This document shows positions 779 through 59,739 of a stretch of DNA of 64,000 nt, one piece after another. The stretch spans positions 2,624,001 to 2,688,000 of the forward strand of contig OZ001293.3 of NCBI GenBank assembly GCA_963921275.4, in the 5' to 3' direction. A program made the translations under genes and the position numbers. The DNA comes from an uncultured Hormoscilla sp. (GTDB lineage: Bacteria; Cyanobacteriota; Cyanobacteriia; Cyanobacteriales; Desertifilaceae). The notes beneath the pieces are model-generated. The model ran no database searches. It saw only the letters and a program-made list of their open reading frames with translations, and was not told the origin of the DNA. The first letter of the stretch is position 1; each line of letters starts with the position of its first letter.

Positions 779-3700
779 ATGACCATATTTTTCGTAACGC
801 CAGATGACGATCGCGTTACGGGCACCCCAGAAAGAGACCAGATATCGGGTCTGGAAGGAAATGATACTATCAATGGCGCTGGCGGAGATGACGAACTGCG
901 CGGTAACCAGGGTAATGATATCTTGAACGGTGGTCCGGGAAGCGATCGCCTGTTCGGGAACCAGGGTAATGACATTCTCTCAGGCGGTTCGGGCCAGGAT
1001 ACTCTAATCGGAGGCGCCGGCGGAGATATCTTTATCTTGGGACAGGGACAGTCCAATTTCAGGAATGCCGATCTAATCGCAGATTTTCGTCAAGGTCAGG
1101 ATTTAATTGGTTTGAGGAACGGACGGGAATTTGCTGACCTGGAGATCCTAGGTGGCCGCAACGCTGTCCTGCGCCACCGACTACGGGGAGAATTTTTGGC
1201 CATCATCAGGGGAGTTCGGCAATCGGAAATCACCTCAGAGGACTTCACCACGGACTACCGTTCCGGAAAAATCGGGCCACCAACCACGGGACTGGAGGCG
1301 ATCGCCTCCATCGAACTCAGCGGGGCCGAAATTATCGCCCACGACGACTCTACTCAACGGTTGTTTGTAGTCACGGGGAACGAGTTCCTGGAAATTATCG
1401 ATATCGCCGACCCCACCAACCCCATTCAGGTGGATAGCATCAACCTCAGACCCTTTACCGCCAACAGTGTCGCCGCGAACAATGGCATTATCGCCGTTGC
1501 CATTGAAAATACTGTCGCCCAAGACCCTGGACTGGTAGGATTTTTCGATGGGGAGGGAGGATTTTTCGGTGCTGTCACCGTGGGGGCCCTGCCAGATATG
1601 ATTACTTTCACCCCCGATGGTCAAAAAGTTCTCGTGGCGAATGAAGGAGAACCTAACGATGATTATACCATTGACCCAGAAGGTTCTGTCAGCATTATCG
1701 ATCTATCTGGTGGGGTTGCTAACCTGAGTCAGGATAACGTTACTACTGCTGACTTTACCGCTTTTAACGATCGCCTCTCCGAACTCCTGGCAGCGGGAGT
1801 GAGGATCTTCGGTCCGGGGGCCACGGTAGCAGAAGATGTCGAACCTGAATATATCACAGTTTCGGCAGATTCCCAAACCGCCTGGATTTCTTTGCAAGAA
1901 AATAATGCGATCGCCCGCTTGGACATCAACGCCGGGGAGATAACGGGAATCTTCCCCCTGGGGTTCAAAGACCACAATGCCCAACCAGTTTTGAATACTT
2001 TCTTCTTCAACCCTGCCGAGTTACCCAGTCTGGGAACCACCGATTTTTCCGGAACGGTAGCGCGAGGGGAGATTAAACTGAGTGGATTCTCCGGATTATA
2101 CTATGAAGGGGTCAACCCCGAGAATGGGAATTTGCAATTTATCACCCATCCCGATCGGGGACCCGATGACGGCACAGATGAAAATGGTAATCGGATATTT
2201 CTCTTACCCGAGTTCCAACCAGAATTAGTTCGCTTTGAACTGGATCGGGAGTCGGGTGTATTAGATATTGTCGATCGCATCGGTCTGAAACGTCAAGATG
2301 GCACGCCCCTGACGGGTTTACCCAACCTGCCAGAATTAGATCCGGACAGTCCCGTAGACGAAGATGGTAACCTGTTAGAGTTCGACCCCTTGGGAATAGA
2401 TGCTGAGGGAGTTGTGGTGGCGCCGGACGGAACCTTCTGGTTAGTAGACGAATACCGTCCCTCCATCTATCACTTCCTCCCCGACGGAACTCTATTTAAC
2501 CGTTACGTACCAGAAGGACTCGACCCCGCTGTGGGAACCCCGGCATTACCCGCAGTGTATAATACGCGGCGACCCAACCGAGGGTTTGAAGCAGTGGCCT
2601 ACGAGGAAGGGAAAATCTATGCTTTCATTCAGCGACAACAAAGGACCGGAACCAGAAGGGGTCGCAGTGGGACAAGTGGGCGATCGCACCTATGCCTTCA
2701 TCGGCTTAGAACGGATTGGGGGTATCATGACCTATGATGTCACAGATCCGTTTAATCCCAAGTTCGTCCAGTATCTGAATAATAATCCCGAGTTTCTGCC
2801 TACAGGAGACATTGCCCCCGAAGGACTGACCTTTATCTCCCAGACAAATAGTCCCACAAACAATCCTCTGTTAGTTGTCGGGAACGAAGTCAGCGCCACA
2901 ACTACAATATTCGAGTTCGGGGGTGACTCTCGCGGTCCCGGTCCGCAACCCAACAGTCTGGTAAATGGGGTTGCTAGCGGCGATACGACTCAGGATGGGA
3001 CAGTATTATGGACTCGCAGCACATCACTAGGGGATGTCACCTTTGAATATGCTACGGACCCCAACTTTCTGACTATTGTTGGCAGCGAGAATGCTACAGT
3101 CACGAACCCCGACCTGCCAGTAAAGGTAGAATTGACGGGTTTGAGTCCGGGAACTGAGTATTATTATCGCGTGACTGACTCCGCCGGAGACTCAGAGACT
3201 GGAAAGTTCGCAACTGCTAACGAACTGGGAACCCAAGCAGGGTTGACCTTTGGCGTATCTGGAGACTGGCGGGGCGAGTTAAGTCCCTATCCCGCGATCG
3301 TCAACGCCCCAGAAAAAGATTTAGACTTTTTCGTGTTGCATGGGGACACCGTCTACGCCGACTTTCCCTCTCCCGCCGTCCCTCTGGAACAGGCCACAAC
3401 CCTAGCAGAGTTTCGGGACAAAAACAGCGAAGTGTACGATACCCGCTTGGGTTTGAATGCCTGGGGGGACCTGCGGGCCTCCACTTCGGTGTTAGCGACC
3501 ATAGACGACCACGAAGTCACCAACGACTTTGCCGGGGGTGCCCCAGCAGCAACGGATCCCCGCTTTGGCACATCTGATGGTTTAATCAACGACACCGAAC
3601 TGTATTCTTGGAATGCAAGCATTCCAAGAATACAATCCCATCCGGGATGAATTTTATGGAGAAACGGGAGACCCTCGCACCGCTGGCGAACGAAAACTCT

Positions 3701-4566
3701 ATCGGTTTAATACCTACGGGGATGATGCTGCCGTCATCATTCTGGACAACCGTTCTTTCCGCGACCCCCAGCTGCCAAACGTGACGGATGTCACCGATAC
3801 CGAACAAGTTGCTGCATTTTTGGCAAGTTTTTTCGACCCCGATCGCACGATGCTGGGGGCCCAGCAGCTAGCAGACTTAAAAGCAGACTTGCTGCAAGCA
3901 TCCGATAATGGCATCACCTGGAAATTCGTGATGGTGCCCGAACCCATCCAAAACCTGGGGGTAGCGCTAGCGGCCGATCGGTTTGAAGGATATGCAGCGG
4001 AACGGACGGAGATTTTGCAATTCATCTACCAGAACAATATCGAGAATGTCGTCTTCGTAGCAGCAGACGTGCATGGGACGATCGTCAATAATCTCACCTA
4101 TCAGACCGACCCTCTAGGGCCCCAAATACCCACAGGTGCCTGGGAAATCACCACGGGTGCTGTCGCTTACGATCGGCCCTTAGGACCCACGGTAGTGGGA
4201 ATAGCTGCGGCCAGTGGTTTACTAACACCGGAACAACTAGAATTTTACAATTCTCTTCCCACTGTCAACGATGGAGATGATGTTGTCGATGACAAGGATG
4301 ACTTTTTCAAAGATCTGACCGACCAACAGCTAATTCCCTTCGGTTATGACCCCGTGGGATTGCAAGATTCCGGGATTGATGCTACCTTACTCCAAGGTGA
4401 CTATGTTGCTGCTCACAGTTACGGCTGGACGGAGTTCGCGATCAATCCCATCAGCCAAAACCTGCTAGTCACCACCTACGGGATAGACTCCTACAGCGAA
4501 GACCAACTGCTAGCAAATCCTGGGGCCATTGTCGGGCGCGTGCCCGCGATCGTCAGTCAGTTTTAA
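779..4566 (+). pseudogene. Multidomain alkaline phosphatase (RTX Ca-binding repeats + choice-of-anchor-I/PhoA-like + phytase-like + PhoD), split over three frames
   Basis: GGxGxDxL repeats; VGALPDMITFTPDG..VANEGEP; DEYRPS, NRGFEAVA; SDNKGPEPEG; PhoD motifs HGDTVYAD, DDHEVTND, DVH. Frame breaks near 2630 and 3607. Confidence 0.85.
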
Positions 4567-4684
4567 GTAACCCCCGTGTAGTCGGTCAAGAAACCGGGTT
4601 TGGATGGTCAAGGATCTTTTTGTTTATCGGGTCGGGTTGTTCTTCATTAGAAACCCGGTTTCTAGCTTCTACTGCACTCTACTG

Positions 4685-5332
4685 CTACAGCAAGCAGATC
4701 GCCTTGAGAACTTGCAGTAGTTCCCGGGTGCGATCGCCTGCAAAAAAGTCCAGTATTGGCATAAATTGATAAGTAGGCGGATTTCCCTGTTGAATATAAA
4801 CAAACTGATAGGTACGACCATTAGTAGTCAAGCCCCAAACCGATGCTTGACTTTCGAGGCTTTGGAAAGCATAGGTGAGTAATTGGGACAAACCGGTAAA
4901 TTCCGCTGCTGCGCTGTTTTTGCTTTCTACGACCAAAATCCACAGAGGGGTATTACTTGCAGTATATTTCTGTTTGTGGGCAGCGACAATATCAAAGCGC
5001 CCTGTAATATAGGTATCCTCATCATCAATATAAAGGCGGGCAATATCTTCTTCAATTTTCACCTGGATGGGGGGCCGGTTAAAACCAGCTAACCGCAATA
5101 ATGGTGCAACCGCTATAACGCGCACCTGTCCTTCCGTGACTTTCCCCTCTCTCCAATAGGCGATCAACTCATTCTGTATGCGATCGAGTTCCTGTTGTTC
5201 GCTGTCAGTCAGGGGTTCGATTTTTCCGGAACGGTGGGTTAACAGCGGGGTAAAGGAACCGTTGTATCTGGGTTGAAACCCTAGCAAGCGTTCGACATCT
5301 TGTAGAGAAAGCTTGCGAGGTATTGTAGTCAT
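4685..5332 (-). CDS. Restriction-endonuclease-like protein (type I R-subunit N-terminal-like, PD-(D/E)xK)
   Basis: GRFDI...VVESK...QLLTYA...WGLTTNG motifs; contains a 15-nt in-frame micro-insertion at 5221-5235. Confidence 0.7.
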   Translation of the reverse strand: MTTIPRKLSLQDVERLLGFQPRYNGSFTPLLTHRSGKIEPLTDSEQQELDRIQNELIAYWREGKVTEGQVRVIAVAPLLRLAGFNRPPIQVKIEEDIARLYIDDEDTYITGRFDIVAAHKQKYTASNTPLWILVVESKNSAAAEFTGLSQLLTYAFQSLESQASVWGLTTNGRTYQFVYIQQGNPPTYQFMPILDFFAGDRTRELLQVLKAICLL

Positions 5333-5555
5333 AACATAGGATAGAATTGGTATTAGATATCATTATAGCACCTCTTGTCACTACTACTGGACAGACTCTC
5401 GATAGTTAGTCAGACCTTTGTCATCAGCATGGGCTCTGACCAACTCCGATCGTCAGTCAGCCCACGATCGTGATAACATCAATTTATTTACTTGCCAAGA
5501 AAAAAGTTATCGTGGTATGATAGAGGAAGATAATCAAATAGGAGTACACAAAACC

Positions 5556-6129: not shown

Positions 6130-6208
6130 ATTGTCTGTGTCAAGTGATGCAGTAAGCTAATAACAATGAAGAACCATGCCATTAACCATTAACCATTAAC
6201 CATTAACC

Positions 6209-8163: not shown

Positions 8164-8265
8164 TATCAATTTGTAGGTTCTCGTATTTGGAATAAAAGAA
8201 TATGATTGACAGAGTTCGCGCAATGGCGATCCAATTCTCAATTAACCATTGTTCAATTTCCTGTG

Positions 8266-10806: not shown

Positions 10807-10811
10807 CCAGT

Positions 10812-13495: not shown

Positions 13496-15317
13496 ATGGA
13501 TGTTTCTCTGAGCAGCTCTCAGGTAAAGCAAAAAGCGCTAGAATTGGGCTTCCATAAGGTGGGCATAGCGGCTATAGATGCTAAAACTGTCAGTAAAGCA
13601 GTTGAACGTTTACAGGCATGGCTAGGAAATGGCTACCAGGCGGATATGGAATGGATGGCAAACCCTAAGCGTCAAGATATCCGTCAGGTAATGCCTTCAG
13701 TTCAGTCTATTATTACGGTAGCTCTCAATTACTATACTGCTCATCAGCGTCCTGAAGGGAGTCAGTACGGAAAAATCTCTCGCTATGGGTGGGGACGGGA
13801 CTATCATCGGGTGATGGACAAAAAGCTGAAACTGTTAGCAAACTGGCTGCGATCGCACTCTTGTGGAGTGGAAGTGCGTTACTATGCTGATACGGGACCT
13901 GTTCAGGATAAGGTATGGACCCAGGCGGCGGGGATTGGCTGGATTGCCAAGAATGGTAATGTAATTACGCGGGAGTATGGGTCTTGGGTATTTTTGGGAG
14001 AAGTGTTGACGAATATAGTTTTAACCCCAGATGGGCCCCATACTGAACATTGTGGCACTTGTACTCGCTGTATAGACGCTTGTCCTACGGGGGCGATCGC
14101 CCAGCCCTTTGTAGTAGACGCTAATCGCTGTATTGCCTATCATACGATCGAGAATCGTGCCGACAGTTTACCCCTAGCGATCGGGTCTCATCTAGAGGGT
14201 TGGGTTGCGGGTTGCGACATTTGCCAAGATGTCTGTCCCTGGAATCAGCGGTTTGCCAAAGAAACCGACATTACTGAGTTTGTGCGATTCGTTCTAGCCT
14301 AACGTGGTCAAACACGGAACGCTAGCCCGGTTTCATTAGCCGGGAACTCTGACCGCATGGGGGTTAAATTCCCCTCCCCCCAGGTACGGGGGTGACACCG
14401 GTCCTCGGTGCTACGAAGCGACATCATCGTGGTGCTAAGCGAGGACTCAAATGTAGGATAACTGGCAGCCTAAGCCGGTGACGCCGCTAGGAAAGATATC
14501 CAAGGTTAGAGCAGGCAAACATGTGCAAGCCTCGTTATAAGGAACCAGCGAAATAAGGCTATATGCGCTGGCCTAAAAAGGAAATGGTAGCTAGTATTAG
14601 TTTTAGACTCTGGCTAATATAGTACTCAAATAGCTCCCGGGGTATAGTGTGGACCTAAAGGTATTGCGAAATGTTGTTAGGGAACGAAGTAACCTCTCGT
14701 GTGCTGTCCATCAGGACAAGTTAGATGTTAAGCGCAAGCCACGGGGGGAGGGATGGCCCAAGAAGCGAATGCCCGGGGTAATTCCTGGGATAACATCTAC
14801 AGTAATGTAGATGATGCTGGGTAGCCAGCGCTGACGTGGGTCGGTGATACTAGGAAGCTGCTGGAATGAGTAATCCTAAAAAGCCACGGAACTAATCCGA
14901 AACGCAAGTGGAGGATAAGGTATGGATAACTGGTAAAACTGACTTGAAAATGGTGATACTAACGGTTATCAGAACAACCACTCGCTAAACCAGGAAAGGG
15001 AAGAAAAGACAGGCGGCAAGGGCTAACGGAAGTAATTCCTATTAAGTCTACCTATGAAAAGGGCCTAGTACCCAGTAGCCGGATGCGGTGAAAATCGCAA
15101 GTCCGGTTCCTCAAGGGAGGGTCGGGAAGCGATTCCCGGCTCGACCCCATCCAACCCCTATCCCGAGAATCTGACTCCCAAGTTGAGCGAATTGGCAGAA
15201 ATTTCTGATGCGGAGTAGAACCGGCGATTTCCCGCTTCGGCCCTGCGGCGGATTAAACCAGAGATGCTGCGGCGAAATGCTCGTGCTAACCTGGAAGCAG
15301 ATGCGCTCGTTGAATAA
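13496..15317 (+). pseudogene. queG: Epoxyqueuosine reductase, exons 13496-14281 and 15153-15317, with in-frame TAG at 15216
   Basis: [34 protein letters not shown]; spliced C-terminus ITEF|NPYPEN..DAE*NRRFPASALRRIKPEMLRRNA. Confidence 0.9.
14282..15152 (+). mobile_element. ORF-less group II intron, family A copy 1 (871 nt), sense in queG
   Basis: 5' GTGCGATTCG; domain V AGCCGGATGCGGTGAAAATCGCAAGTCCGGTT; domain VI hairpin with bulged A; no ORF; three more copies in window. Confidence 0.95.
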
Positions 15318-21154: not shown

Positions 21155-22873
21155 ATTAAACTAAGCCAGTCCGTCACCGGACCGACTCGTTTTCAAAACC
21201 GGACGTGAGATTTTCACCTCATCCGGCTCCTCAGTAACGCCATCCTTGTCATGGACACGGCAACTACCGTCACTGGCAGTCTTGATATCGTGGCAATGTT
21301 TGTGTAGCAGTTGTAGGTTGTCCCACTGGTCCTTACCACCTAATGAGAGTGGCTTGATGTGGTCTACTTCCCATCTGTCGTTATCCTTAAACGTTAGTCC
21401 GTATTGTTGACATTTCCCCTTTTGCCTTTTCAGTAGCATAGCTACTCGGTTACTTAATTCCGGGTTTTTGCCTAGTCTTGTGCTCCAATATGTGAGGTTC
21501 CCGTCGTATGGGCTAGCTCTTCCTTTCACTTTAATGTGTCTCACTATCCCTACACTTGCGTGTCGATTTAGTGTTACCTCCCTTTTATCTTCACACCGGA
21601 ATCGCCATTGTCCATCTTGGTCCACTGACCAGTATTTTTGGGCTATCCAATGCTTTGACTTGTTGGCGTGTCTTCTCTTTGCCCAATCCTACAGGATTTT
21701 CCATAGGTAATCGTCCATGTCCGAGTAAACTTCTTTGCTTACTCCTGTCCTGAAGTAGTTTGCCCATCCTCGTATTATCGGGTTGAGTTTGCTAATCAGG
21801 GCGTCTTGTGGAGCTGCTCTGTAACTGTTTACTATCTCTTTTAACCTTTCTTTGTGCTTACCTGTGGATTTATTACTGGGTTTGATGAGGGTCTTGTAAC
21901 CTAGGGGTTTTCCATGTCCGTTCTTGCTGCTTCTATTCTTACTAATCTCATATTGCCTTACGTTGAACCCCAAGAAGTCGAATCCTGGTTCTTCTCCCTC
22001 TAGCGTATGAGCTATTTTTGTCTTTTCCGGCTTCAATTCTAGTCCAACCCCTTTCTGCCACTCTGCTATGACCACTTGCGCCTCTTCTATCTTCTTTCTA
22101 TCCTCATGCATTACCACAAGGTCATCGGCGTATCTGACCACTGTCAGCTTCTCCTTCTCTCTTTGTGTTTTTACAAGTTCCATCACAGCCTCCTCTAGCC
22201 CATGTAGAGCTATGTTTGCCAGTAACGGTGATATGACTCCTCCCGTACCCTCTTTGGTTGCATACCATTCTTTCTTGTCTATCACCCCGGCTTTTAACCA
22301 TGCCCGTATTTGTTTACGGATTGGTGAAGTCGTATTCAGTTTTTCTATCAGCGCTTTATGGTCAATCTTATCAAAGCATTTTGCAATGTCAGCATCTAAT
22401 ACCCATTTGGGTTTGTACCTAATGCTGTTGAATATTGCTTCGATTGCATCGTGGCATCCTCTTCCAGGTCTGAATCCGTAGGAGTTACCTTCCATATACG
22501 CTTCCCATTCAGGATAACTGCGCAATTTTCAGTAACCCCTGTGTCGCTCGGTCGTGCATTGTAGGTATTCCTAATGGACGTTTTTCGTCTCTCCCTGGCT
22601 TGGGTATCCACACTCGTCGCGCGGGCCGAGCTTGGCTGGAGATTTCTATTTGTCCTACCAGTTCTAGTCGTTGCTTTGGGGTTAGTGATTTCACACCATC
22701 CACACCTGCCGTTTTCTTTCCCTGGTTGTCTTGTGTTACCTGCCGTACCGCTAGACTTTTGGCAGCCCGGGATTTTACCAGCATCATCTGTAAGTTGTCA
22801 GGGCTAATGAAACCCTGCTATCTGGGACAGCTTTTGAATTGTGTCAAGTCGGTTTAATCTAAACGAATCGCAC
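21155..22873 (-). mobile_element. Chimeric, internally deleted group II intron with dead RT/maturase/HNH ORF
   Basis: 5' GTGCGATTCG at 22873, ~80 nt later runs into LAVRQVTQDNQGKKTAGVDG; YADD; HNH; domain V/VI ending TTAGTTTAAT at 21155; frameshift near 22515, PQ lost from GTPQGG, TAG at 21689. Confidence 0.9.
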
Positions 22874-24006
22874 CCCAGATATCCTCTGGATGAATTGGAT
22901 GGGGTCGAGCCGGGAATCGCTTCCCGACCCTCCCTTGAGGAACCGGACTTGCGATTTTCACCGCATCCGGCTACTGGGTACTAGGCCCTTTTCATAGGTA
23001 GACTTAATAGGAATTACTTCCGTTAGCCCTTGCCGCCTGTCTTTTCTTCCCTTTCCTGGTTTAGCGAGTGGTTGTTCTGATAACCGTTAGTATCACCATT
23101 TTCAAGTCAGTTTTACCAGCTATCCATACCTTATCCTCCACTTGCGTTTCGGATTAGTTCCGTGGCTTTTTAGGATTACTCATTCCAGCAGCTTCCTAGT
23201 ATCACCGACCCACGTCAGCGCTGGCTACCCAGCATCATCTACATTACTGTAGATGTTATCCCAGGAATTACCCCGGGCATTCGCTTCTTGGGCCATCCCT
23301 CCCCCCGTGGCTTGCGCTTAACATCTAACTTGTCCTGATGGACAGCACACGAGAGGTTACTTCGTTCCCTAACAACATTTCGCGATACCTTTAGGTCCAC
23401 ACTATACCCCGGGAGCTATTTGAGTACTATATTAGCCAGAGTCTAAAACTAATACTAGCTACCATTTCCTTTTTAGGCCAGCGCATATAGCCTTATTTCG
23501 CTGGTTCCTTATAACGAGGCTTGCACATGTTTGCCTGCTCTAACCTTGGATATCTTTCCTAGCGGCGTCACCGGCTTAGGCTGCCAGTTATCCTACATTT
23601 GAGTCCTCGCTTAGCACCACGATGATGTCGCTTCGTAGCACCGAGGACCGGTGTCACCTCCGTACCTGGGGGGAGGGGAATTTAACCCCCATGCGGTCAG
23701 AGTTCCCGGCTAATGAAACCGGGCTAGCGTTCCGTGTTTGACCACGTTAGGCTAGAACGAATCGCACATCCTCAATAGAAGATTAGCATCGGCTTGAATC
23801 GCCTCTGCGGACACCTCCAGTAATTCACTGCAACGATTACTCAGGAACGGCCAAGCCAAACGGCCATCGTCGCGCCGCAGAATTTGGCAGATCGCCATAG
23901 CCGATCCTCTAGCAAGGATTCGGTCCAGTCTGGCCTCACTTTCGACCTTCACCGCAGGCGTGGCGCAGCCATGCTTGTTTGGTGTCGAATTGCTTAAATC
24001 TCGCAT
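22874..24006 (-). pseudogene. PAS-domain 5' part of a sensor kinase, exons 24006-23768 and 22896-22874
   Basis: Removing the intron gives ..FLSNRCSELLEVSAEAIQADANLLLRIIHPEDIW (PAS IHPED motif). Confidence 0.75.
22897..23767 (-). mobile_element. ORF-less group II intron, family A copy 2 (871 nt)
   Basis: Reverse complement of 14282-15152 with about three substitutions. Confidence 0.95.
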
Positions 24007-29795: not shown

Positions 29796-31799
29796 CTAAT
29801 AATAGTAATACCAGTTTCCAGGTTTAATGCCATTAAGCCACCAGCGGAGCAAAGACCCAACAACTTCCACCTCAATCTCTTGTCCTTTGCGCCGTAAAAT
29901 CGCGTAGGGACTATAGGCTTCGCTGATATCCATACATTGGTGAGAGCCTTCCTTGCAAAAGGCGACAAAGGCAGGAATAGCTGCTCCCTGAGAATCCCAA
30001 TAAATTTCGCTCTTCTCCCGCCACTCCCAGAAAGCCTTCATAACTGTCTGGTGATTCAGTCCTAGCAAATTGATTGGGTCTTTAGCTGACCATTTAGCTT
30101 TGAATGCTGCCTCTAAATCTGGAGTTTCTAGCACTGAGAATACATAGTGCTCGTGGACCTCATCGCGAGCCTCATCGTTCCAGTACTGGGCTATGAGTAA
30201 TGTTGCTGAGTTAAGTTGAGGGTATTTTTCAAAACAAGCTTTAACCCAATTTGACATAGGAATCAATAATTCGCGCTCTTAGTTGTGCTGCTTCCTATTC
30301 ACTGTATAGGTGGATGGGGTCGAGCCGGGAATCGCTTCCCGACCCTCCCTTGAGGAACCGGACTTGCGATTTTCACCGCATCCGGCTACTGGGTACTAGG
30401 CCCTTTTCATAGGTAGACTTAATAGGAATTACTTCCGTTAGCCCTTGCCGCCTGTCTTTTCTTCCCTTTCCTGGTTTAGCGAGTGGTTGTTCTGATAACC
30501 GTTAGTATCACCATTTTCAAGTCAGTTTTACCAGTTATCCATACCTTATCCTCCACTTGCGTTTCGGATTAGTTCCGTGGCTTTTTAGGATTACTCATTC
30601 CAGCAGCTTCCTAGTATCACCGACCCACGTCAGCGCTGGCTACCCAGCATCATCTACATTACTGTAGATGTTATCCCAGGAATTACCCCGGGCATTCGCT
30701 TCTTGGGCCATCCCTCCCCCCGTGGCTTGCGCTTAACATCTAACTTGTCCTGATGGACAGCACACGAGAGGTTACTTCGTTCCCTAACAACATTTCGCGA
30801 TACCTTTAGGTCCACACTATACCCCGGGAGCTATTTGAGTACTATATTAGCCAGAGTCTAAAACTAATACTAGCTACCATTTCCTTTTTAGGCCAGCGCA
30901 TATAGCCTTATTTCGCTGGTTCCTTATAACGAGGCTTGCACATGTTTGCCTGCTCTAACCTTGGATATCTTTCCTAGCGGCGTCACCGGCTTAGGCTGCC
31001 AGTTATCCTACATTTGAGTCCTCGCTTAGCACCACGATGATGTCGCTTCGTAGCACCGAGGACCGGTGTCACCCCCGTACCTGGGGGGAGGGGAATTTAA
31101 CCCCCATGCGGTTCAGAGTTCCCGGCTAATGAAACCGGGCTAGCGTTCCGTGTTTGACCACGTTAGGCTAGAACGAATCGCACAGTCTCCAGAAGGATCT
31201 CCCTCTAGACAATCTTTAGCTATTTGTTTAATTTCATATTCCTTAAAGCTCCTCAGAGATTGTGGCGTGATTCCATCCTGATGAGGACGCCACATTTTAC
31301 CAATAATTTCAACTTCAATGTCATCACCCAGGCGACGGAGAATGGCATAGGGAACAAAGTCTTCCTTAACATTATTTTTTGAGGGAGACTCATTTTTGCA
31401 AAATGCAGCGAAAGCAGGAATTGCAATTCCTGCTTCATCCCAAATTAATTTGTAGTTGTGCGGTAATTTGACTTTTTGATTTTCCGATCGCAAACTGCGC
31501 ATTACTTTGTCAATTTCCTCGCGATCGTGACATGTAAATACTGGCAGATTAACTAAGTCTGTGCTTAAGTGATATTTTGAAGTTAGACCAGCGGACCAAT
31601 CGGGGTTTTCCAGTAATGAGAATATGTATTCGTCATAGACTGCGTCATGTTCCCACTCATTACAATACTCAACGAGCAACACAATAGACTGAAGCTGGCT
31701 GTACTTTTTAAAGCAAGCGGCTGCAAATGGCTTGACCCAATCTTCTATTAGCTTTGCCCGTAATTGGGCTGTTTCTTCTGCTGTGTACATGTATTTCAT
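29796..31799 (-). pseudogene. Two-domain tandem-repeat protein of unknown function, exons 31799-31184 and 30311-29796
   Basis: Both halves share AQLRA..ACF.KY.QL.S..FS.LE.PD..AIPAF.AFCK..PYAILRR; second half has TAG near 30295 and a frameshift near 30250. Confidence 0.75.
30312..31183 (-). mobile_element. ORF-less group II intron, family A copy 3 (872 nt)
   Basis: Near-identical to the other copies, one extra base near 31113. Confidence 0.95.
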
Positions 31800-33790: not shown

Positions 33791-34167
33791 GGGGGCGAGG
33801 GCGATCGGGGGGTATAAGGGGGCGAGGGCGATCGGGGAGTGCATTCCCAAATTAAGAAACCCCAAAATTAAGAAACCCGGTTGGCAACCAGCCAGCACAA
33901 TCAAATTTGTCTGTACGCCGGTTACAGCCGATCGTCTTCTGACAATTCTGTCAACTTTCTACGGTACTCAAATATGCCGATCGAAAGCTGTTTTTTTCCA
34001 CCGTTCCGGAAAAATCGGTAGCCTCTCCGTACCGGCGACGGGCTCTATTGCGAATCCCAACCGGAACAGCACAACCGATCGCGCAACTGGCGATTGCCGC
34101 GACTTTTTCTATTGGGCCGTCATCTACTGAAAAATGGCTGATTCTGGTAAATTATTAGGTTATTGCT

Positions 34168-45168: not shown

Positions 45169-46003
<835 letters not shown>

Positions 46004-46019
46004 AAATCTCAGTTCAACT

Positions 46020-46535
46020 CTACTTACCCAATTTCCAATCTTCACCACCCGATAGTTTGCTGACTTCCTCCATAATCACACTACGTATTGTTTTCGCAGA
46101 ATGTTCATAAGTTAAATTTAGCAGTTGAGTCGCACCCCGAAATACTGCCGTCTTATCTACCAGATTTTCGAGTTTAAATGGCGTCAACTGCCCATCCAAA
46201 ACTTCCCCACTCCCTATTGCTATTGCATCAGCAAAAGCCATTTCCAAGTAGTCACCCCATTCATCCTGCTTAATATAGTAAGAAGTTTTATTCTCTTTCA
46301 GATTTAGACTTTGGATCTTCAGGAGAGAATCTCTGATCGAAGCATACCATGAATTATTCATCTTTTTTTCAACTACATTCTTAATTAAATGAACCAGCAT
46401 TTTGACCAGAAAACTCTCGATATTTTGCAAAATAGCTTTCTTACTCATCCCTTCCAGTTCGTCTACTAACATTAATGCCTCATCATATCGACCTGACAGG
46501 ATGCATGTTCTGATGTCTGTGAGTTCTTGAGTCAT
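46020..46535 (-). CDS. DUF29 family protein
   Basis: ELEGMSKK..IESFLVKMLVHLIK..SWYASI. Confidence 0.8.
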   Translation of the reverse strand: MTQELTDIRTCILSGRYDEALMLVDELEGMSKKAILQNIESFLVKMLVHLIKNVVEKKMNNSWYASIRDSLLKIQSLNLKENKTSYYIKQDEWGDYLEMAFADAIAIGSGEVLDGQLTPFKLENLVDKTAVFRGATQLLNLTYEHSAKTIRSVIMEEVSKLSGGEDWKLGK

Positions 46536-51394: not shown

Positions 51395-51647
51395 TTGGAT
51401 AGTTTGGACGACCTGATCGTCGGGGCCCCCGGTGCTAGTAACAGTCGCGGACAGTCCTACGTAGTCTTCGGCAAGAACGACAGCAACCGAGTGGACTTAA
51501 ACAGTGTGACTGCGGGTATTGGCGGCTTTGCGATCAACGGCATCCTCAACAATGACCGTTCCGGTACCAGCGTCAGTAATGCTGGAGACGTGAATGGAGA
51601 TGGCTTGCAAGACCTGATTGTCGGGGCCTCGGGTGCGTCCGGCGGGT
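51395..51647 (+). pseudogene. FG-GAP/integrin-like repeat fragment
   Basis: DDLIVGAPG..GQSYVVFG..SVSNAGDVNGDGLQDLIVGA. Confidence 0.75.
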
Positions 51648-51664
51648 ACTGTTCCGGAAAAATC

Positions 51665-51879
51665 GGACCCGGGGCGGCCCGACAACAGCTCCCGCAGCCG
51701 CCACCGGAGCCATGCCGTTCGCGCAGCGGCGCGTAGCGCTTCCCGACAGCCGTCCCAGCCACCGCCAATCCCATCCCGCCAACCGCTGCGGAAACTCCCG
51801 CACCAGCCGCAGTACCCACCCCGACGCCGGCAGCAGCTTCAATCATGTCTTTGGTCTTGTTGTTCTTAGAGTCCGTCAT
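51665..51879 (-). pseudogene. Small glycine-zipper-like protein, disrupted and truncated
   Basis: AAAGVGVGTAAGAGVSAAVGGMGLAVAGTAVG then GC-rich insertion, GMAPVAAAGAVVG continues in another frame. Confidence 0.55.
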
Positions 51880-51893
51880 CGCTCATGTCCTCG

Positions 51894-53051
51894 TCACATC
51901 TTCTTGAGTATACCAATCAGCGCTTCACCCATAGCGCGACAACCCAGCATTTTCATGCCCACCGTTCCGGCGTCTTCCGCCTGCTCTTGTCCTGAAGGAC
52001 TCGGCATGCTCCAGACACCGCCGGAAAAATCAGACATAATATCACCCGTGCGATATCCCCGATCCAAAACTTGCATCACTGCTTGTTCAATTTTATCGGC
52101 GGCTGCCAGTTCGTTTAACCCATATTTTAACATCATCGCCGCACTCAAAGCTTGGGCTAAGGGATTGGCTTTATCTTGTCCCGCGATATCCGGTGCAGAA
52201 CCATGTACCGGTTCAAACACCCCTGGACCCGATGCCCCTAAACTAGCTGATGGTAACATGCCTATACTGCCCGTGAGCATGGCGGCGGCATCGGAGAGGA
52301 TATCGCCAAACAGATTACCCGTCACGATCGTATCAAACTGTTTGGGCGCGCGCACTAACTGCATGGCGGCATTATCTACGTAAAGATGAGACAGTTCTAC
52401 ATCCGGATATTCTGAAGATAAAAGGATAATGCGATCGCGCCAGAGTTGGGAGACTTCCAAGACATTGGCCTTATCCACAGAACATAGCTTACCGCGCCGC
52501 TTGCGAGCAGTTTCAAAGGCTACCCGCCCGATGCGATCGATCTCAGCTTCAGTATAAGCCATAGTATTCACGCCCCGCTGTGCGCCCGTTTCCGTAGCAA
52601 AGACTCCCTTGGGTTTGCCAAAATAAATCCCACCTGTCAATTCCCGCACCACCATAATATCTACCCCTGCCACCACCTCTGGCTTCAAGGTGGAAGCATC
52701 AACCAACTGAGGTAATATCGTCGCGGGGCGGAGATTGGCAAATAAACCCAAACCCGATCGCAGTGCCAGCAGTCCCGTTTCTGGGCGCTGATGGCGGGGA
52801 AGGTTATCCCACTTGTAACCCCCGATCGCCGCCAGTAACACGGCATCACTGTTACGGCACATTTCCAGGGTGTCAGGGGGCAGAGGTTCTCCGGTGGCAT
52901 CGATCGCAGCACCCCCCATCAGGGCTTCGGAGAATTCAAACTGGATATCGCATTGCTTGCCAATGACTTTCAGGACTTCTACTGTCACAGCCATGATTTC
53001 CGGACCAATGCCGTCGCCCGGAAGTAAGGTAATGCGGTATTTTGGGGTCAT
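51894..53051 (-). CDS. leuB: 3-isopropylmalate dehydrogenase with a 23-aa C-terminal insertion
   Basis: [42 protein letters not shown]. Confidence 0.96.
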
Positions 53052-53154
53052 CTTCACTCTTATTGCTTGTCAGCTATTATCATACTCTATAAAATGTACT
53101 GTATGAGCTTTTCGTCCGGAAGCGAAGGTACAGAACTAGCCAGCTGACAAACAA

Positions 53155-53693
53155 ATGGAATATTTAATCTATTTTGATGTCTGTTGTCTAAATCGTCCCT
53201 TCGACGACCAGACACAGGAACGAGTGCATCAGGAAGCTAAAGCCGTGCGACTAATCATAGATCGTTGTCACAGCGGTAACTGGCAGATGCTTGGCAGCGA
53301 AGCCATAGATGCAGAACTCGATCGGACCCCTACTGGGGCAAGAAAACAGCAGATGGAGACCTGGGTTGCTTTGGCCATAGCGACAGTCGCGATCGACGAA
53401 CAAATCTACTCGCGTGCTGCGGAACTTTTTGAACTGGGGTTAAAAAATTACAATGCGGTGTCTGGAGCATGCCGAGTCCTTCAGGACAAGAGCATGCGGA
53501 AGACGCCGCCTTGCACATCGCTTGTGCGGAAGTGGGAAATGCCGACATATTGTTAACGACAGACGATTGCGCTGCGCGCACGCTACGCGATCGGATGTTG
53601 CGTTTGGCGGCTAGGTTAAGCTCTGTGTTACAAGTAAAAGTGGAGAACCCATTGCGGTGGCTAAGAGAGGTAACAAATGATAGACGTGAGTAA
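53155..53693 (+). pseudogene. PIN domain toxin disrupted by two micro-insertions
   Basis: IYFDVCCLNRPFDDQTQ..; 53-nt insert 53455-53507 shifts the frame; ALHIACAE..LLTTDD. Confidence 0.85.
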
Positions 53694-55081
53694 ACTGACT
53701 TTAGAACAGATTATCACACTAGTAATAGACGCTCTTGCTGAAAGTCTCGGTCCTGCGGGGATGGGGCGTTTTATGGAGCAGTTCGAGAAAGGGAGTGGAG
53801 ATTACACTCGCGATCGGGATAAATTTTTAGGCAATAGCACCCTTGAGGAAATTTTTGCCCAGATCCAACAGCGGCGACAACAGCAAACTGAAAATGCCAA
53901 TCGGACACCGTTCCGGAAAAATCTGACCCAATTCAAAAACGCGATCGATGTTCGCCAGCTAACTCTATCCCAGATTAGGGAATTGGGAATAGAAGTGCTG
54001 ACCTTGGCCCTTGGCCGATCGGGCATGGAGCGATTTCTGCAAAAATTAGAAATGGACAATGGTGATTATTACGGATGGGGTCGAGCCGGGAATCGCTTCC
54101 CGACCCTCCCTTGAGGAACCGGAATTGCGATTTTCACCGCATCCGGCTACTGGGTACTAGGCCCTTTTCATAGGTAGACTTAATAGGAATTACTTCCGTT
54201 AGCCCTTGCCGCCTGTCTTTTCTTCCCTTTCCTGGTTTAGCGAGTGGTTGTTCTGATAACCGTTAGTATCACCATTTTCAAGTCAGTTTTACCAGTTATC
54301 CATACCTTATCCTCCACTTGCGTTTCGGATTAGTTCCGTGGCTTTTTAGGATTACTCATTCCAGCAGCTTCCTAGTATCACCGACCCACGTCAGCGCTGG
54401 CTACCCAGCATCATCTACATTACTGTAGATGTTATCCCAGGAATTACCCCGGGCATTCGCTTCTTGGGCCATCCCTCCCCCCGTGGCTTGCGCTTAACAT
54501 CTAACTTGTCCTGATGGACAGCACACGAGAGGTTACTTCGTTCCCTAACAACATTTCGCGATACCTTTAGGTCCACACTATACCCCGGGAGCTATTTGAG
54601 TACTATATTAGCCAGAGTCTAAAACTAATACTAGCTACCATTTCCTTTTTAGGCCAGCGCATATAGCCTTATTTCGCTGGTTCCTTATAACGAGGCTTGC
54701 ACATGTTTGCCTGCTCTAACCTTGGATATCTTTCCTAGCGGCGTCACCGGCTTAGGCTGCCAGTTATCCTACATTTGAGTCCTCGCTTAGCACCACGATG
54801 ATGTCGCTTCGTAGCACCGAGGACCGGTGTCACCCCCGTACCTGGGGGGAGGGGAATTTAACCCCCATGCGGTCAGAGTTCCCGGCTAATAAAACCGGGC
54901 TAGCGTTCCGTGTTTGACCACGTTAGGCTAGAACGAATCGCACAGGCTCAATAAGGATAAATGGCTATCCAATCTTACCTTTGACCATATTCACGATCGC
55001 ATCGCCGCCCTGACAGCTACTACTCCCGCAAATCATTGCAATGAGATCGCAAATGAAGCCCATCAACAATCGCCTTTGTAA
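53677..55081 (+). pseudogene. Duplicated-domain antitoxin-like gene knocked out by an antisense intron
   Basis: Two LG..GM.RF.....GDY repeats; frame continues GDYY|RLNKDKWLSNLTF when 54073-54943 is removed. Confidence 0.7.
54073..54943 (-). mobile_element. ORF-less group II intron, family A copy 4 (871 nt), antisense to host gene
   Basis: Near-identical to other copies; substitution in domain V at 54124. Confidence 0.95.
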
Positions 55082-55341
55082 ACTTTTGTAAAATTAGGTT
55101 AAAAGATTGTTCGGGAGAGATAGAGAGCATTATAATAGGAAAGAGTTGCGGGAAAATTTTCTGGGTAAGTTCAGTTTCAATTTCCGAAACTTATAAGGCG
55201 GTAGAGAAAAGCTAGGCTAGAATGAAGCAGAACTTAGAACCCTTGATGCTTGGCACGAGAACTGGCAATTTGCACCCGGGGACTCACTAAACAGTTCGAG
55301 CGCTGACGGTAAGCGATATGGACTTGGAAGTGAAAATGGGT
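54969..55341 (+). repeat. Diverged direct duplicate of 56757-57141 (ABC gene upstream region and first codons)
   Basis: Colinear match with scattered indels; ATG lost in this copy. Confidence 0.9.
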
Positions 55342-55431
55342 AATGACATTGCTTTGTTTATGTAGCCGGATCCCTCGTTCCCAGGCAGCGCATCCTCTCC
55401 GCGCTGCCTGGGAACAGGTTCGGGCGGCTTT

Positions 55432-56094
55432 CTATGGCATAATTGGGGCACTCACAAGATCGCTCCAGGGCCCTGGCTTTCCTTTCGGGTTGACCCAGCG
55501 CAACCGGTAGTAGGCAATTTTGCGCGCATCTTCGCTATCAAATTTCGATATATAGGGAGTGCGGGTATCGAGGCCGAAAAATCTCAACTCATCTGTATTC
55601 GTCGGCGGTGCGTCCCCGATCTTCACCCAAACTTCTGCCCCCATGACACCAGCAGGTTTAGCCCGACGGTTAGGAGTGGTTTCGTCGAAGAAACGCAGCG
55701 TGTGACTCAAGGGTTTGCTGAGGGCGATAATCACGATAGGGCGCGTTGTGGGGGCGCTAATGGCAGTGCGGTGGCTTTCGGGGACGGTGATACCCAGGGC
55801 GGCACGGTGAGCGTTAGTAATGGTATCGCTAGCTTGCAGTTTGCGGACTTGGCGGCGGATCTCCTTTTCCCAGGCTTGGCGGTCTTCGTCTTTTTGCTGA
55901 CGCGCGCTTTGGGCCGCTGCTTGGGCGTTAAGATGGACTTCGTAGGAGGTTTCCCAGCCAGATTGAGTAGCGATGAGGGTGGTAATATCCTCGTTGCTGA
56001 CCTTAAGTTCGTCTTTATTAGTTTGCAAGTAGCTTCCGAAATTTATTTGCCAGTTATTGAAATCATTGTCAGAAGAAGGAATGTAGTCGGCCAT
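55432..56094 (-). CDS. Hypothetical protein, helical N-terminus plus FN3-like C-terminus
   Basis: MADYIPSSD..RAALGITVP..KPAGVMGAEVW..YYRLRWVNPKGKPGPWSD. Confidence 0.7.
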   Translation of the reverse strand: MADYIPSSDNDFNNWQINFGSYLQTNKDELKVSNEDITTLIATQSGWETSYEVHLNAQAAAQSARQQKDEDRQAWEKEIRRQVRKLQASDTITNAHRAALGITVPESHRTAISAPTTRPIVIIALSKPLSHTLRFFDETTPNRRAKPAGVMGAEVWVKIGDAPPTNTDELRFFGLDTRTPYISKFDSEDARKIAYYRLRWVNPKGKPGPWSDLVSAPIMP

Positions 56095-56507
56095 TGAGAT
56101 ATCCTGTTCGCGATTAATTTTGTAAAAGTACTGACCCTGATGCCAAGCCGTTGCTCTGGCGGGACAAAATGTCGTCTCCAAAGGGCTTTCTCGCTTTTAG
56201 GCTTCGATGTCTCCGGAGAGTTCGATGTCTTTTGGGGCGAGATGTATCCTGGGAGCGCTAACCACACTACCCAGTATACCGCTCGCGTGTCTAATCGCAC
56301 TACCTCTCTGATCGTGGCGCTAGGACGATGTCTCTACCGGTAGTGCAACTACGATGTCTCGGGGGTTTCTCCGTGCGTCCGGGAGACGTCGAGTTCCCCC
56401 GAGACATCGAACTCCCCCGAGACATCGAACTTTCCCGGGGACACTCAGCGCGCAGATCACGTCGAAGCCAAAGCGATGGCCCCTTAAGGATAGATATATT
56501 CTATCAT

Positions 56508-56652
56508 GGAATAACTCAGTCATGCCTCTCTGTGACTGAGTTATTTTCTGGAGTGACTGAGTTATTCCTTGGAGTAATTGTTCAGTTCCTGAGGTGACCG
56601 TTTATTTCCTGGAGTAACTGAGTTATGCCACCGAGTACGAGAGTCATGCCCT
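56508..56652. repeat. Degenerate 21-nt tandem repeat, about 7 units
   Basis: Consensus GGAGTRACTGAGTTATKCCTY at 56508, 56529, 56550, 56571, 56611, 56632. Confidence 0.8.
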
Positions 56653-57045
56653 GACGGCACAGATCTTTACCAAGGGTGAGATTCCTCACTCTCAGGCCGG
56701 AACAGTGCGAGTGCCGTGGCCAAGCCAGCCCCCAGCCCCCCAAAGCTTAGATGCGCCCAATCTTACCTTTGACCATATCCACGATCACATCGCCGCCCTG
56801 ACAGCTACTACTCCCGCAAATCATGGTAATGATATCACAAATGAAGCCAATAAACAATCGCGTTTGTAAAGTTTTGTAAAATTAGGTTAAAAGATTGTTC
56901 GGGAGAGATAGAGGGCATTATAATGGGAAAGAGTTGCGGGAAAATTTCCAAGTGGGTAAGTTCAGTTTCAATTTCCTAAACTTATGCCCACGGCGGTAGC
57001 GAAAAGCTAGGCTAGAATGAAGCAGAACTTAGAAGCATTGCAGCT

Positions 57046-57996: not shown

Positions 57997-58041
57997 TGTC
58001 AGGGAGCACTGGTACCACCAGTTATAAAGGATACAGGAAAA

Positions 58042-59739
58042 ATGACAATGAATTTGATTAACCAGTTGGGGGAATGGAATCCCCAGTTGTTCCGAGAAGT
58101 AAAAGGCAGGCTGAAAAGTCGTAATGGCGCGATCGCCCTGGGAGTTTCGGTTTTTAGCCAGTTGCTATTAGTCTTGGTTTTTGTGGAAAAACTGCCGGGT
58201 CGGGAAATCCAGCGTTCCGGAAAAATCGGACATAGATACTGCACGGGCGGTGTGGAGGCATTATCTGATTATGTGAAGTACCACCAATGCCTCATGGATG
58301 CCTTCGGCAATCCGGATATAAACTGGCAGTTGTGGTGGACAGATATCTTTATCTGGATGAGCGCGATCGGCATCTTCACTATGTTAATAGTGGGGACATA
58401 TATGCTGATCGGCGACCTGGACCAGGAAGAACGTCGCGGCACCTTGAACTTCATTCGCCTCAGTCCCCAGTCTACTCAAAGTATTTTGACTGGTAAACTG
58501 CTAGGGGTGCCGATTTGGCTCTATGTTGCCAGTATCCTGGCCATGCCATTGCATCTGTGGTCGGGAGTCGCGGCGCAGGTTCCTTTGAGTCTGATTTTTA
58601 CCTTCTACGGGGTAACTTTTGCCAGTTGCGTTTTCTTCTACAGTGCCGCGCTGCTGTTTGGTTTAGTCAATTCCTGGATGGGAGGGCTTCAAGCTTGGTT
58701 GGCCAGTGGGATGCTGCTCTTTTTTTTGACGGGCACAACTGCTATGCGGATTCCGGAAAACCCAATGGATCTGCTGAATTTACTTTCTCCCTCTACTCTG
58801 CTGGTCTATCTGGTTCCCGACCAGTTTGCAGAATATGTGGAGATTTTTGGTTACAGTGCTGAGACTCTACTGTCTGATTTACATGATTGGCTGTGGTTTC
58901 ACTTGCATATCGGTGCCAGTTCGGTTACGATCGCAGGGTTTATGGTGTTAAATTACGGCCTGTGGACAATCTGGATTTGGCAAGCCCTGAACCGTCGTTT
59001 CCACAATCCTAATAGTACCACCCTGAGTAAGGCCCATAGCTATTGGTTAGTGGGGGGCTTGGAAGTTTTGATGGTGGGATTTGCCCCCCTGTACGGTTCA
59101 CATAATGACTTTTCCGCAAGCTTGAGTTTATTACTGTTAGGGAATCTGTGGCTGTTTGCTGGTTTAATCGCAGCATTGTCACCCGGACGGCAAGCTTGTA
59201 TTGATTGGGCCCGTTACCGACATCAGTCAGGCGATCGCCGCAAGCATCTTTGGCAAGATTTGATGTGGGGTGAGAAAAGTCCGGCGGTAGTGGCGATCGC
59301 CCTTAACTTGCTCGAAGCTCATCTCATCCTATTACCCTGGGTTCTCCTGCACCAAAACTTAGACTACAAAATAGAGGCGATCGGTTATCTGCTTTTGAGC
59401 ATGTCTATCCTGATGCTATACGCTTCGATCGCCCAGCTGATGTTATTAATGAAAACGCAGAAACCGGGGCTGTGGGCAGCTAGCACCGTAGGGGCAGCAA
59501 TTTGCTTGCCACCATTTATGTTAGCGGTGCTGTCCATTTCCCCAGGAGAAAATAATCTGCTGTGGATGCTTACAGCCTTTCCCTGGGCGGCCTTTAAGTA
59601 CGCATCAGCCATGACAGTCGTTGTCTCCTTCGTCGGACAGTTAGGCGTCGCAGGCATGTTAAACTGGCAATTGACGCGGCAGCTTCGACTTGCTGGAGCA
59701 TCAGCATCCAAATCCCTCTCCCTAAAGCCCCAACCCTAA
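58042..59739 (+). CDS. ABC exporter permease-like membrane protein
   Basis: WNPQLFREVKGRLK, EERRGTLNFIRLSPQ, many TM segments. Confidence 0.8.
   Translation: MTMNLINQLGEWNPQLFREVKGRLKSRNGAIALGVSVFSQLLLVLVFVEKLPGREIQRSGKIGHRYCTGGVEALSDYVKYHQCLMDAFGNPDINWQLWWTDIFIWMSAIGIFTMLIVGTYMLIGDLDQEERRGTLNFIRLSPQSTQSILTGKLLGVPIWLYVASILAMPLHLWSGVAAQVPLSLIFTFYGVTFASCVFFYSAALLFGLVNSWMGGLQAWLASGMLLFFLTGTTAMRIPENPMDLLNLLSPSTLLVYLVPDQFAEYVEIFGYSAETLLSDLHDWLWFHLHIGASSVTIAGFMVLNYGLWTIWIWQALNRRFHNPNSTTLSKAHSYWLVGGLEVLMVGFAPLYGSHNDFSASLSLLLLGNLWLFAGLIAALSPGRQACIDWARYRHQSGDRRKHLWQDLMWGEKSPAVVAIALNLLEAHLILLPWVLLHQNLDYKIEAIGYLLLSMSILMLYASIAQLMLLMKTQKPGLWAASTVGAAICLPPFMLAVLSISPGENNLLWMLTAFPWAAFKYASAMTVVVSFVGQLGVAGMLNWQLTRQLRLAGASASKSLSLKPQP

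Follow-up and report, generated by a model that had tools for sequence, protein, structure and literature searches.

Very small mobile repeats, the small dispersed repeats (SDRs), have been described in Nostoc and its relatives (Elhai, 2008, as related in the accessible parts of PMC5861425 and PMC4390886), and no SDR-like repeat outside the Nostocaceae was reported by Elhai according to the accessible part of one of these sources (PMC5861425). Here we describe a 15-nucleotide (nt) unit, ACCGTTCCGGAAAAA (F1), that occurs eight times in a 64-kb stretch of DNA from an uncultured Hormoscilla sp. (positions 2624001-2688000 of contig C1 in G000, an assembly of 7.03 Mb in 7 contigs); this whole stretch is called the window below. 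Further families considered with it are F2 (ACGCTGCGCGAAAAA, 15 nt), F3 (ACGGTCCGCGGACGGCCCGAAAAA, 24 nt) and F4, a 54-nt family found nested inside F1. Taken as a whole, the data are best explained if F1 belongs to the SDR type of mobile DNA, as an ultra-small and non-autonomous element (probability about 0.7), and it is highly probable that F1, F2 and F3 are genuinely mobile insertions of that type.

The small dispersed repeats of cyanobacteria, to which an earlier note on this DNA had pointed, proved to be the right comparison. Like SDRs as they are described in the accessible sources, F1-F3 are short dispersed units that are inserted precisely and without target duplication, at genic and intergenic positions and inside other repeats, and their presence or absence varies between relatives. 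F2 and F3 often enter at CGA^TCG, which, given a one-base ambiguity of register, is the same point before (A)TCG as in the available description of SDR5, and this likeness suggests that F2 and F3 share a mechanism with SDR5. F1, in contrast, inserts at Y^TCGG and not at the HIP1 sequence GCGATCGC; the genus that harbours F1-F3 lies outside the Nostocaceae; and a layout of mini-hairpin and A5 tail is not described for SDRs in the literature searched, as far as its accessible text extends. Elhai's SDRs are said to be 21-27 nt long. F1 and F2, at 15 nt, lie below that range, while F3 measures 24 nt. F1 is smaller than the tiny mobile repeats described in the literature searched, which held no account of F1-F3 units or of repeats in Hormoscilla genomes. 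We class it with the SDRs, as a new variant falling outside the named families, a separation drawn from their descriptions. Hormoscilla spongeliae is an uncultured filamentous symbiont whose hosts are Lamellodysidea sponges; in the accessible part of the paper describing it (PMC6520454) the terms transposase, mobile and insertion are absent, 'repeat' is used of protein repeats only, and repeats of the present kind are not mentioned.

Several other systems resemble F1-F3 in part. Repetitive extragenic palindromes (REPs) and REPINs are short non-coding hairpin units thought to be moved in trans by RAYT, a Y1 HUH nuclease that acts on single strands; REPs are 20-40 bp long, carry a GTAG or CGTC tag, lie mostly outside genes with some inside them, and flank the RAYT gene (accessible parts of PMC3116915, PMC3733652 and PMC6006769). 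F1-F3 are likewise short dispersed hairpin-forming units without coding capacity, some of them in genes, as far as those texts allow the comparison. Unlike REPs, their logos contain no GTAG or CGTC tag, which is present in two families of this genome that flank Y1_Tnp matches; within 2.5 kb of the two Y1_Tnp matches only those families, of 40 nt and 25 nt, were found; and F1 is not mainly extragenic (98/180 copies in open reading frames (ORFs) of at least 150 aa). The IS200/IS605 elements (IS608, ISDra2) are hundreds of bases long or more, with a hairpin at each end and a lagging-strand bias (accessible part of PMC6006769). F1 shares with them a fixed and retained tetranucleotide, a fixed orientation, structure near an end, and the lack of duplication and of terminal inverted repeats, but has one predicted 3-bp hairpin within 15 nt in place of hairpins at both ends. 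IS200/IS605 elements use a TTAC target and guide pairing. Miniature inverted-repeat transposable elements differ from F1 in having terminal inverted repeats and a target-site duplication. Rickettsia palindromic elements are selfish repeats tolerated in frame inside protein genes; F1 resembles them in this tolerance but is about ten times shorter, and we know of no defined tetranucleotide target for the Rickettsia elements.

Abundance, boundaries and target of F1

Exact copies of F1 numbered 180 in the genome, all on contig C1 (81 on the + strand and 99 on the - strand), against 0.02-0.10 expected from Markov models of order 2-6, the k-mer comparison that the earlier note had called for. Among 11.2 million distinct 15-mers F1 ranked 107th; a survey of the commonest 15-mers showed that short repeat families are abundant genome-wide. 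The 19-mer consisting of F1 and TCGG was found 135 times exactly and 260 times with at most 3 mismatches, whereas five scrambled 19-mers gave 0 to 4 matches. Flanks were unique for 188/260 copies, and the remainder fell into 19 clusters carried inside larger repeats; with this many unique contexts, F1 as only a passenger on larger repeats was ruled out. Within the window, seven matches with at most 2 mismatches were obtained, compared with 0.14 expected, and 0/100 shuffles reached seven. An eighth copy is split by 54 nt. All eight sites proposed from inspection of the window were recovered (Table 1), and TC lies directly 3' of 8/8 copies.

Orthologous sites with and without the unit define its boundaries. 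Counts for the sister genomes (G001-G004) depend on assemblies of 6 to 570 contigs. When 19 distinct sister copies were compared with G000, 7 corresponded to clean 15-nt gaps and 2 to near-clean gaps, 8 sites were occupied and 2 were untidy. For 79 copies drawn from four other assemblies of the genus, 62 spanning matches were obtained in G000, comprising 25 occupied sites, 20 clean 15-nt gaps and 17 others; several of these 17 are 15-nt gaps with a neighbouring change, and one is a G000 copy with an internal 5-nt deletion. Clean 15-nt indels, for which the earlier note had asked, were seen in 20/62 spanning comparisons. In 20/20 clean gaps the missing sequence was exactly ACCGTTCCGGAAAAA, with no donor flank co-transferred. 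Of these 20 empty sites, 15 have Y|TCGG and the remainder have TCAG, TCTG, TTGG or TCCA. These orthologous empty sites show that the unit is 15 nt long, that TCGG was present beforehand and survives insertion, and that nothing is duplicated. The TC seen after each window copy is the start of this required, pre-existing TCGG, a point that, with the two sister families and the restriction to one genus, adds to the earlier note. Its view that neither target duplication nor terminal inverted repeats accompany the unit was upheld by the logo flanks and by the comparison of empty and occupied sites, and its proposal of a short mobile unit adding five residues agrees with the clean gaps and the many unique contexts.

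A logo of the 180 copies showed T (180/180), C (177), G (157) and G (159) on the right side, followed by a weak A-A, and only a weak G-Y-C-Y on the left. For a target logo, 123 copies with unique flanks were set against a background of 50,793 TCGG sites in the genome. Position -1 was C or T in 90% and never G (n=123), the background having 36% A; position -2 was C or G in 81% and position -3 was C or T in 79%; and A made up 51% of position +5 compared with 23% in the background. Across 162 unique contexts, position -1 was C or T in 149 and A in 13. The preferred context is G-Y-S-Y^TCGG-A-A, with F1 in a single orientation immediately 5' of TCGG.

An origin without any dedicated enzyme, in which microhomology template switching or short-patch gene conversion would use any copy as donor and TCGG(AA) as return homology, would account for the decay of information content with distance on both sides of the insert. 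It would also fit the resemblance of the YTCGGAA target to F1's own TTCCGGAA, judged by eye from the logo, and the tandem F2 units described below. The left boundary is sharp, however, with at most a 1-nt preference (Y) in common with the flank, and inserts are exactly 15 or 24 nt, free of donor flank in the 20 clean gaps. That G never occurs at -1 would be hard to obtain from homology alone. One junction is shared by three families with different cores. We consider such an origin highly improbable.

That one 15-mer recurs unchanged in many genes is odd, and this is all that would favour an artefact (adapter or assembly error) or a conserved protein motif. F1 was found in five independent assemblies, partly at shared sites, and in Logan contigs of separate sequencing runs (run X5 and others, where contigs show presence, not frequency); it is read in six frames, and 46% of copies lie outside ORFs of at least 150 aa. 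An adapter, named beforehand as something that would undo the finding, is excluded on these grounds, as is an assembly artefact, and artefact and motif together retain virtually no probability.

Table 1. Copies of F1, the nested F4 element and group II intron matches in the window.
Feature	Bases that follow	Position	Strand	Context	Read as
F1, exact	TCGG	1257-1271	+	663-aa ORF 746-2734, between Pfam domains, about aa 171-176	RSGK
F1, exact		2044-2058	-	ORF 746-2734, choice_anch_I/phytase-like linker	FSGT
F1, exact		5221-5235	-	224-aa ORF 4688-5359 (- strand), no Pfam family	RSGK
F1, exact	TCGG	34000-34014	+	121-aa ORF, no Pfam family; coding status uncertain	
F1, ACTG variant	TCGG	51648-51662	+	113-aa ORF 51395-51736 with FG-GAP repeats	
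F1, split copy	TCAG	51961-52029	+	LeuB ORF 51897-53069 (- strand), near C-terminus	
F4, nested 54-nt hairpin element		51971-52024	.	register ambiguous by 4 nt (CCGG on both sides)	
F1, exact	TCTG	53907-53921	+	146-aa ORF 53674-54111, no Pfam family	PFRK
F1, AGCG variant	TCGG	58211-58225	+	580-aa ORF 57997-59736, no Pfam family	RSGK
Group II intron domain V/VI match		15074-15150	+		
Group II intron domain V/VI match		21155-21232	-		
Group II intron domain V/VI match		22899-22975	-		
Group II intron domain V/VI match		30314-30390	-		
Group II intron domain V/VI match		45925-46032	+		

Host genes in the window are ORF-based calls. The earlier note had held that removal of exactly 15 nt leaves natural peptides, and at three sites this was borne out by sister sequences lacking exactly those bases. 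At 2044, exactly these 15 nt are missing in G001 (GTTDARGE versus GTTDFSGTVARGE); at 5221, a clean 15-nt gap was found in each of G002, G003 and G004; and at 58211, G003 has a clean 15-nt gap with the empty site C|TCAG, the copy being missing in G001, G002 and G004 too. The other sites compared were less clear: at 53907, G002-G004 are 15 nt shorter in an untidy alignment; at 1257, the only relative found, the G001 orthologue, is 12 nt shorter across a diverged stretch; and at 51648, no spanning match was found among the sister genomes. The natural appearance of the peptides after removal arises from split junction codons. ORF 746-2734 contains RTX repeats and choice-of-anchor I and phytase-like domains, and both of its F1 copies fall between Pfam domains.

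In leuB, 54 nt separate the two parts of the copy, ACCGTTCCGG (51961-51970) and AAAAA (52025-52029). Together F1 and F4 (15 + 54 nt) correspond to 23 added residues near the LeuB C-terminus. In an alignment of the LeuB ORF with plant IPMDH (PDB 3r8w), residues 9-346 and 370-385 align and residues 347-369 are unmatched. F1 without the 54 nt is present in leuB of G004 and of a contig from run X5, each with an unbroken copy and a clean 54-nt skip, while G002 has the same split form as G000. The retention of F1 without the 54 nt in G004 and X5 indicates that F4 entered a pre-existing F1 copy. At least one further F1 copy in the genome is interrupted by F4 at the same point, the CCGG centre. F4 itself has about 95 copies of a 37-nt core genome-wide, and its logo was drawn from 35 copies with one 14-nt seed. 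Its length is divisible by 3 and its six frames contain a single stop; in the aligned copies, read by eye, some arm changes look compensatory (e.g. CACAC...GTGTG).

Copies of the first 9 or 10 nt of F1 without the rest were few (17 and 7), and F1 as a footprint or as the joined ends of a larger element was rejected; two of the four 10-nt prefix examples printed are nested 54-nt elements.

Other features of the window and genome were noted in passing. G000 has about 2.7 kb at approximately 54073-56757 that G003 and G004 lack, their matches to the two flanks being separated by 25 nt. Because its sequence recurs at dozens to hundreds of positions in the sister genomes, this stretch is taken to be one or more mobile elements inserted there. 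Just past the 580-aa ORF, positions 59756-59779 match the Rfam family CRISPR-DR28 at borderline strength (36.6 bits against a threshold of 35); this is probably one of many short repeats and not a CRISPR array. Contig C3 of G000 (31,420 nt) has a G+C content of 17.6%, compared with 47% for the chromosome, and may belong to another organism.

Sister families, shared layout and distribution

F2, followed by TCG, was found as 80 exact 15-mers beginning with A (A-first) and as 107 copies with a 12-nt tail seed; F3, followed by TCGG, gave 66 copies with its tail seed. Among 17 spanning sister comparisons for F2 there were 3 clean and 3 near-clean 15-nt gaps, and among 14 for F3 there were 7 clean 24-nt gaps. 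Insertion at ^TCG is shared by all three families. The bases after F2 were TCGC (27), TCGA (19) and TCGG (16) in 68 contexts, near background, and A is tolerated at -1 of F2 in 28/68. Empty F2/F3 sites read GCGCG|ATCGAG and GCGATCGG. On the strand with the T-run, the units read CCGA^TTTTT-hairpin-T^ (F1), NCGA^TTTTT-hairpin-T^ (F2) and CCGA^TTTTT-hairpin-T^ (F3). CGA forms the three bases before the unit in 19/68 A-first F2, 11/18 T-first F2 and 8/9 T-first F3 contexts; in T-first F2 and F3 the left junction resembles an intact CGATCG, and the unit appears flanked by a TCG(G) repeat. Six head-to-tail T-first F2 units, 15 nt each, adjoin a GCGATCGC site (G000:C1:4116582-4116671). Such a tandem run is expected if the target survives each insertion and A is tolerated at -1. 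A possible pairing of the 3' arm with the target across the A-run was considered as CCGG..TCGG, GCGA..TCGC and CCGA..TCGG; the C8-to-T variant was followed by TCAG in 3/8 contexts, compared with 19/162 (Fisher p 0.07).

The 53 A-first F3 copies of G000 occupy only 11 unique contexts, F3 being largely a passenger on larger repeats. Five F3 copies lie inside a 1.4-kb IS-like repeat (G000:C1:4350999-4352390), which places these F3 insertions before the last burst of that repeat. At least 7 further near-identical copies of the 1.4-kb repeat (about 99.5% identity) were seen; its ends resemble inverted repeats by eye, and its long ORFs have no Pfam family. F1 and F2 copies were also found inside other repeat families.

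F1, F2 and F3 share a common layout: a single base that stays unpaired, a short predicted hairpin of G+C opening with C and closing with G, and five A. When either strand is folded computationally as single-stranded DNA, one base is free, the hairpin extends from base 2 up to the tail, and the tail (A5 or T5) is left unpaired, with predicted energies of -1.6, -2.0 and -5.0 kcal/mol for F1, F2 and F3, respectively. The hairpins would have 3 bp in F1 and F2 and 3+3 bp in F3. All three lengths are multiples of 3, and all three units are stop-free in six frames, for which the chance among genome-sampled words of the same length is 0.30, 0.30 and 0.13.

Variants of F1 throw light on how copies arise. 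The loop variant ACCGTGCCGG was counted 19 times, in 18 unique contexts, and keeps the target of F1; the ACTG variant was seen in 4 independent contexts genome-wide; and ACGGTTCCCG, in which a double stem change restores the middle pair, has 2 copies in 2 unrelated contexts, again with the same target. The double change in ACGGTTCCCG amounts to one compensatory event for the F1 stem. The recurrence of variants in new contexts argues either that copies descend from copies or that there are several templates. F1 copies are all-or-none, and no family truncated at the 5' or the 3' end was found. A tandem array with a period of 89 nt (G000:C1:5096027-5096670) was also observed, containing eight F1 copies, seven of them ACCGTTCTGG, all followed by TCAG.

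The three families are restricted to a single genus, within which the species differ in the sites occupied. A 17-mer of F1 was present in 5/5 genus genomes (177, 25, 140, 148 and 127 copies) and in 0/36 others of the family and order; F2 and F3 were present in 5/5 genus genomes and in 0/16 relatives. Copies were fewest in G001 (25, 19 and 7 for F1, F2 and F3), with 127-148 F1 copies in G002-G004. The tail-plus-target word CSGAAAAATCGG had 248 occurrences in G000, whereas none of 150 other genomes from across the phylum had more than 11, approximately the level of the reversed control. A 19-mer scan of a species-level genome collection gave 104 stretches; among the 80 matches listed, 76 were in four Hormoscilla sp. 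assemblies, and the other four were single matches in unrelated bacteria, as chance predicts.

At 28 shared occupied orthologous sites, a count restricted to pairs whose element aligned without gaps and with at most 3 mismatches, G000 F1 departed from the consensus at 4/420 positions, while the flanks differed by 8.3%. The copies are on this evidence young, repeatedly renewed or constrained. It is also possible that the unit is a selected functional DNA site, its spread being secondary: the low divergence would follow, and the short perfect palindromes, TTCCGGAA in F1 and GTCCGCGGAC in F3, add to the case; that of F1 could bind a dimeric protein or be methylated. On the other hand, no strand or position pattern of F1 was seen along the chromosome, F1 is nearly random with respect to coding (54% against 63%), sites differ between species, and the conservation also fits young copies or repeated hits. 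A selected site is compatible with mobility and not exclusive of it; as the primary explanation it is very unlikely.

Candidate mechanisms of movement

The shared layout and junction are consistent with the action of a single trans-acting enzyme, supplied by the host or by another mobile element, that would move F1, F2 and F3. The recognition site of such an enzyme would be the mini-hairpin with its tail, on one strand, and cleavage would fall beside CG(A/T). Seen on the T-run strand, the cut at the target would give CCGA^TTTTT (as CCGA^TTTTTCCGGAACGGT), and the other end of the unit would be ..SGT^; the two cuts, after CGA and after SGT, would thus lie at fixed distances from the hairpin. The scheme resembles HUH/Y1 single-strand 'peel and paste' transposition. 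The IS200/IS605 and REP/RAYT systems likewise rely on a fixed short sequence beside the element, and they produce neither a duplication nor inverted terminal repeats. By analogy, an HUH-like single-strand nuclease is tentatively taken as the leading model for the mover, although it remains a doubtful one.

A number of observations weigh against mobility of this kind. Only 2 Y1_Tnp matches were found in the genome, each flanked by its own repeat family and not by F1-F3. No strand bias of F1 was seen overall (81 + versus 99 -, p 0.20) or between 0 and 2.5 Mb, the one arm with a trend in skew (21 + versus 36 -, p 0.06), but the GC skew is too weak to locate the origin or define replication arms, and these counts leave room for a bias. 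To our knowledge, 15 nt is far below any known HUH substrate with two end structures. The hairpins of F1 and F2 are no better than those of shuffled sequences (z -1.0 to -1.4; 69-102 of 200 shuffles equal). Since these energies do not exceed those of shuffles, the case for a hairpin depends on the shared layout together with one compensatory variant, and the hairpin is best treated as a predicted design common to the families, not as a demonstrated structure. T-first F2 and F3 follow A in 26/27 unique contexts, mostly CGA, of which the model gives no account. Finally, the low divergence at shared sites also fits selection for function or repeated hits at hot spots.

The two Y1_Tnp loci were inspected, and an association of F1-F3 with a REPtron was rejected, as both are flanked by other families. 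One, a RAYT-like ORF of 206 aa (G000:C1:241795-242139), has inverted pairs of a 40-nt family (111 copies) on both sides and is REPtron-like; the other, a weak match (C1:1348544-1348780), adjoins a 25-nt family (120 copies).

In the main alternative, the units would be made by target-primed copying by a reverse transcriptase (RT). A nicked ...CCGA-3' end would pair with UCGG towards the 3' end of a small RNA (5'-ACCGUUCCGGAAAAAUCGG...) and be extended to the 5' end of the RNA; the template would end in ...AAAAAUCGG at its 3' side, and the three families would correspond to three templates with the same primer-binding tail. This scheme would explain the AAAAA|TCG(G) junction shared by unrelated cores, the absence of duplication, the fixed orientation and the sharp 5' A. 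RT should also be plentiful, group II introns being abundant in G000: approximately 150/150 scored candidates (of 867 from a first look) match intron domains 5/6, and five domain V/VI matches lie in the window (Table 1). Among 150 scored candidates, intron matches numbered 86-127 in G002-G004, with only 2 in G001 and none in the sister genus (G005). Copy number tracks this intron load, G001 having the fewest F1-F3 copies and only 2 intron matches. The correlation comes from five related genomes, however, and relaxed selection on all mobile DNA predicts the same. Moreover, no 5'-truncated copies were seen, although truncation might escape notice with a template of only 15 nt, and neither a master gene nor a source copy with a promoter was found. 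F1 did not overlap any tRNA or tmRNA gene (55 features), a comparison that, outside the window, did not cover rRNA and other RNA genes. We consider copying by RT, or templated copying of another sort, unlikely; the remaining probability falls to some other mechanism.

Reading frames, protein hosts and significance

The earlier note had described F1 as lying mostly in genes. A slight majority of copies (98/180, 54%) is indeed within ORFs of at least 150 aa, but 62.6% of 5000 random positions are so placed (p 0.025), and the description is only roughly correct. Orientation in these ORFs is balanced, with 51 sense and 47 antisense. Sense copies are read as TVPEK (30), RSGK (10) or PFRK (11), and antisense copies as FSGT (40), FFRNG (5) or FPER (2). 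With all six frames and both strands in use, a protein motif was ruled out, in agreement with the earlier note. The frame skew exceeds that of unoccupied YTCGGR sites (chi-square 23.0, 5 df, p 3e-4) and may reflect peptide selection or a finer choice of target.

We also entertain, at rather less than even odds, the idea that F1, F2 and F3 form a mechanistically distinct class of 'A-tailed mini-hairpins', copied before a suitable TCG(G) either by a new HUH nuclease or by group II intron-type RT priming on a 4-nt target. If this is true, 15 nt would be the smallest self-propagating DNA unit among those described in the literature searched, and the class would naturally generate insertions of 5 and 8 residues across hundreds of proteins. 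It would possibly also represent a minimal form of the mechanism behind SDR5-type HIP1 insertions across cyanobacteria.

How very small cyanobacterial repeats move has been a question since 2008, and the substrate is now narrowed to about 15 bases and a 4-base target. Dozens of clean occupied/empty pairs between species, together with three cores that share one tail, make a biochemical or genetic test feasible. The genome is peppered with in-frame peptide insertions that keep reading frames intact, the essential LeuB being among the hosts. In an uncultured genus of sponge symbionts (accessible part of PMC6520454), F1, F2 and F3 could mark fine-scale strain history.

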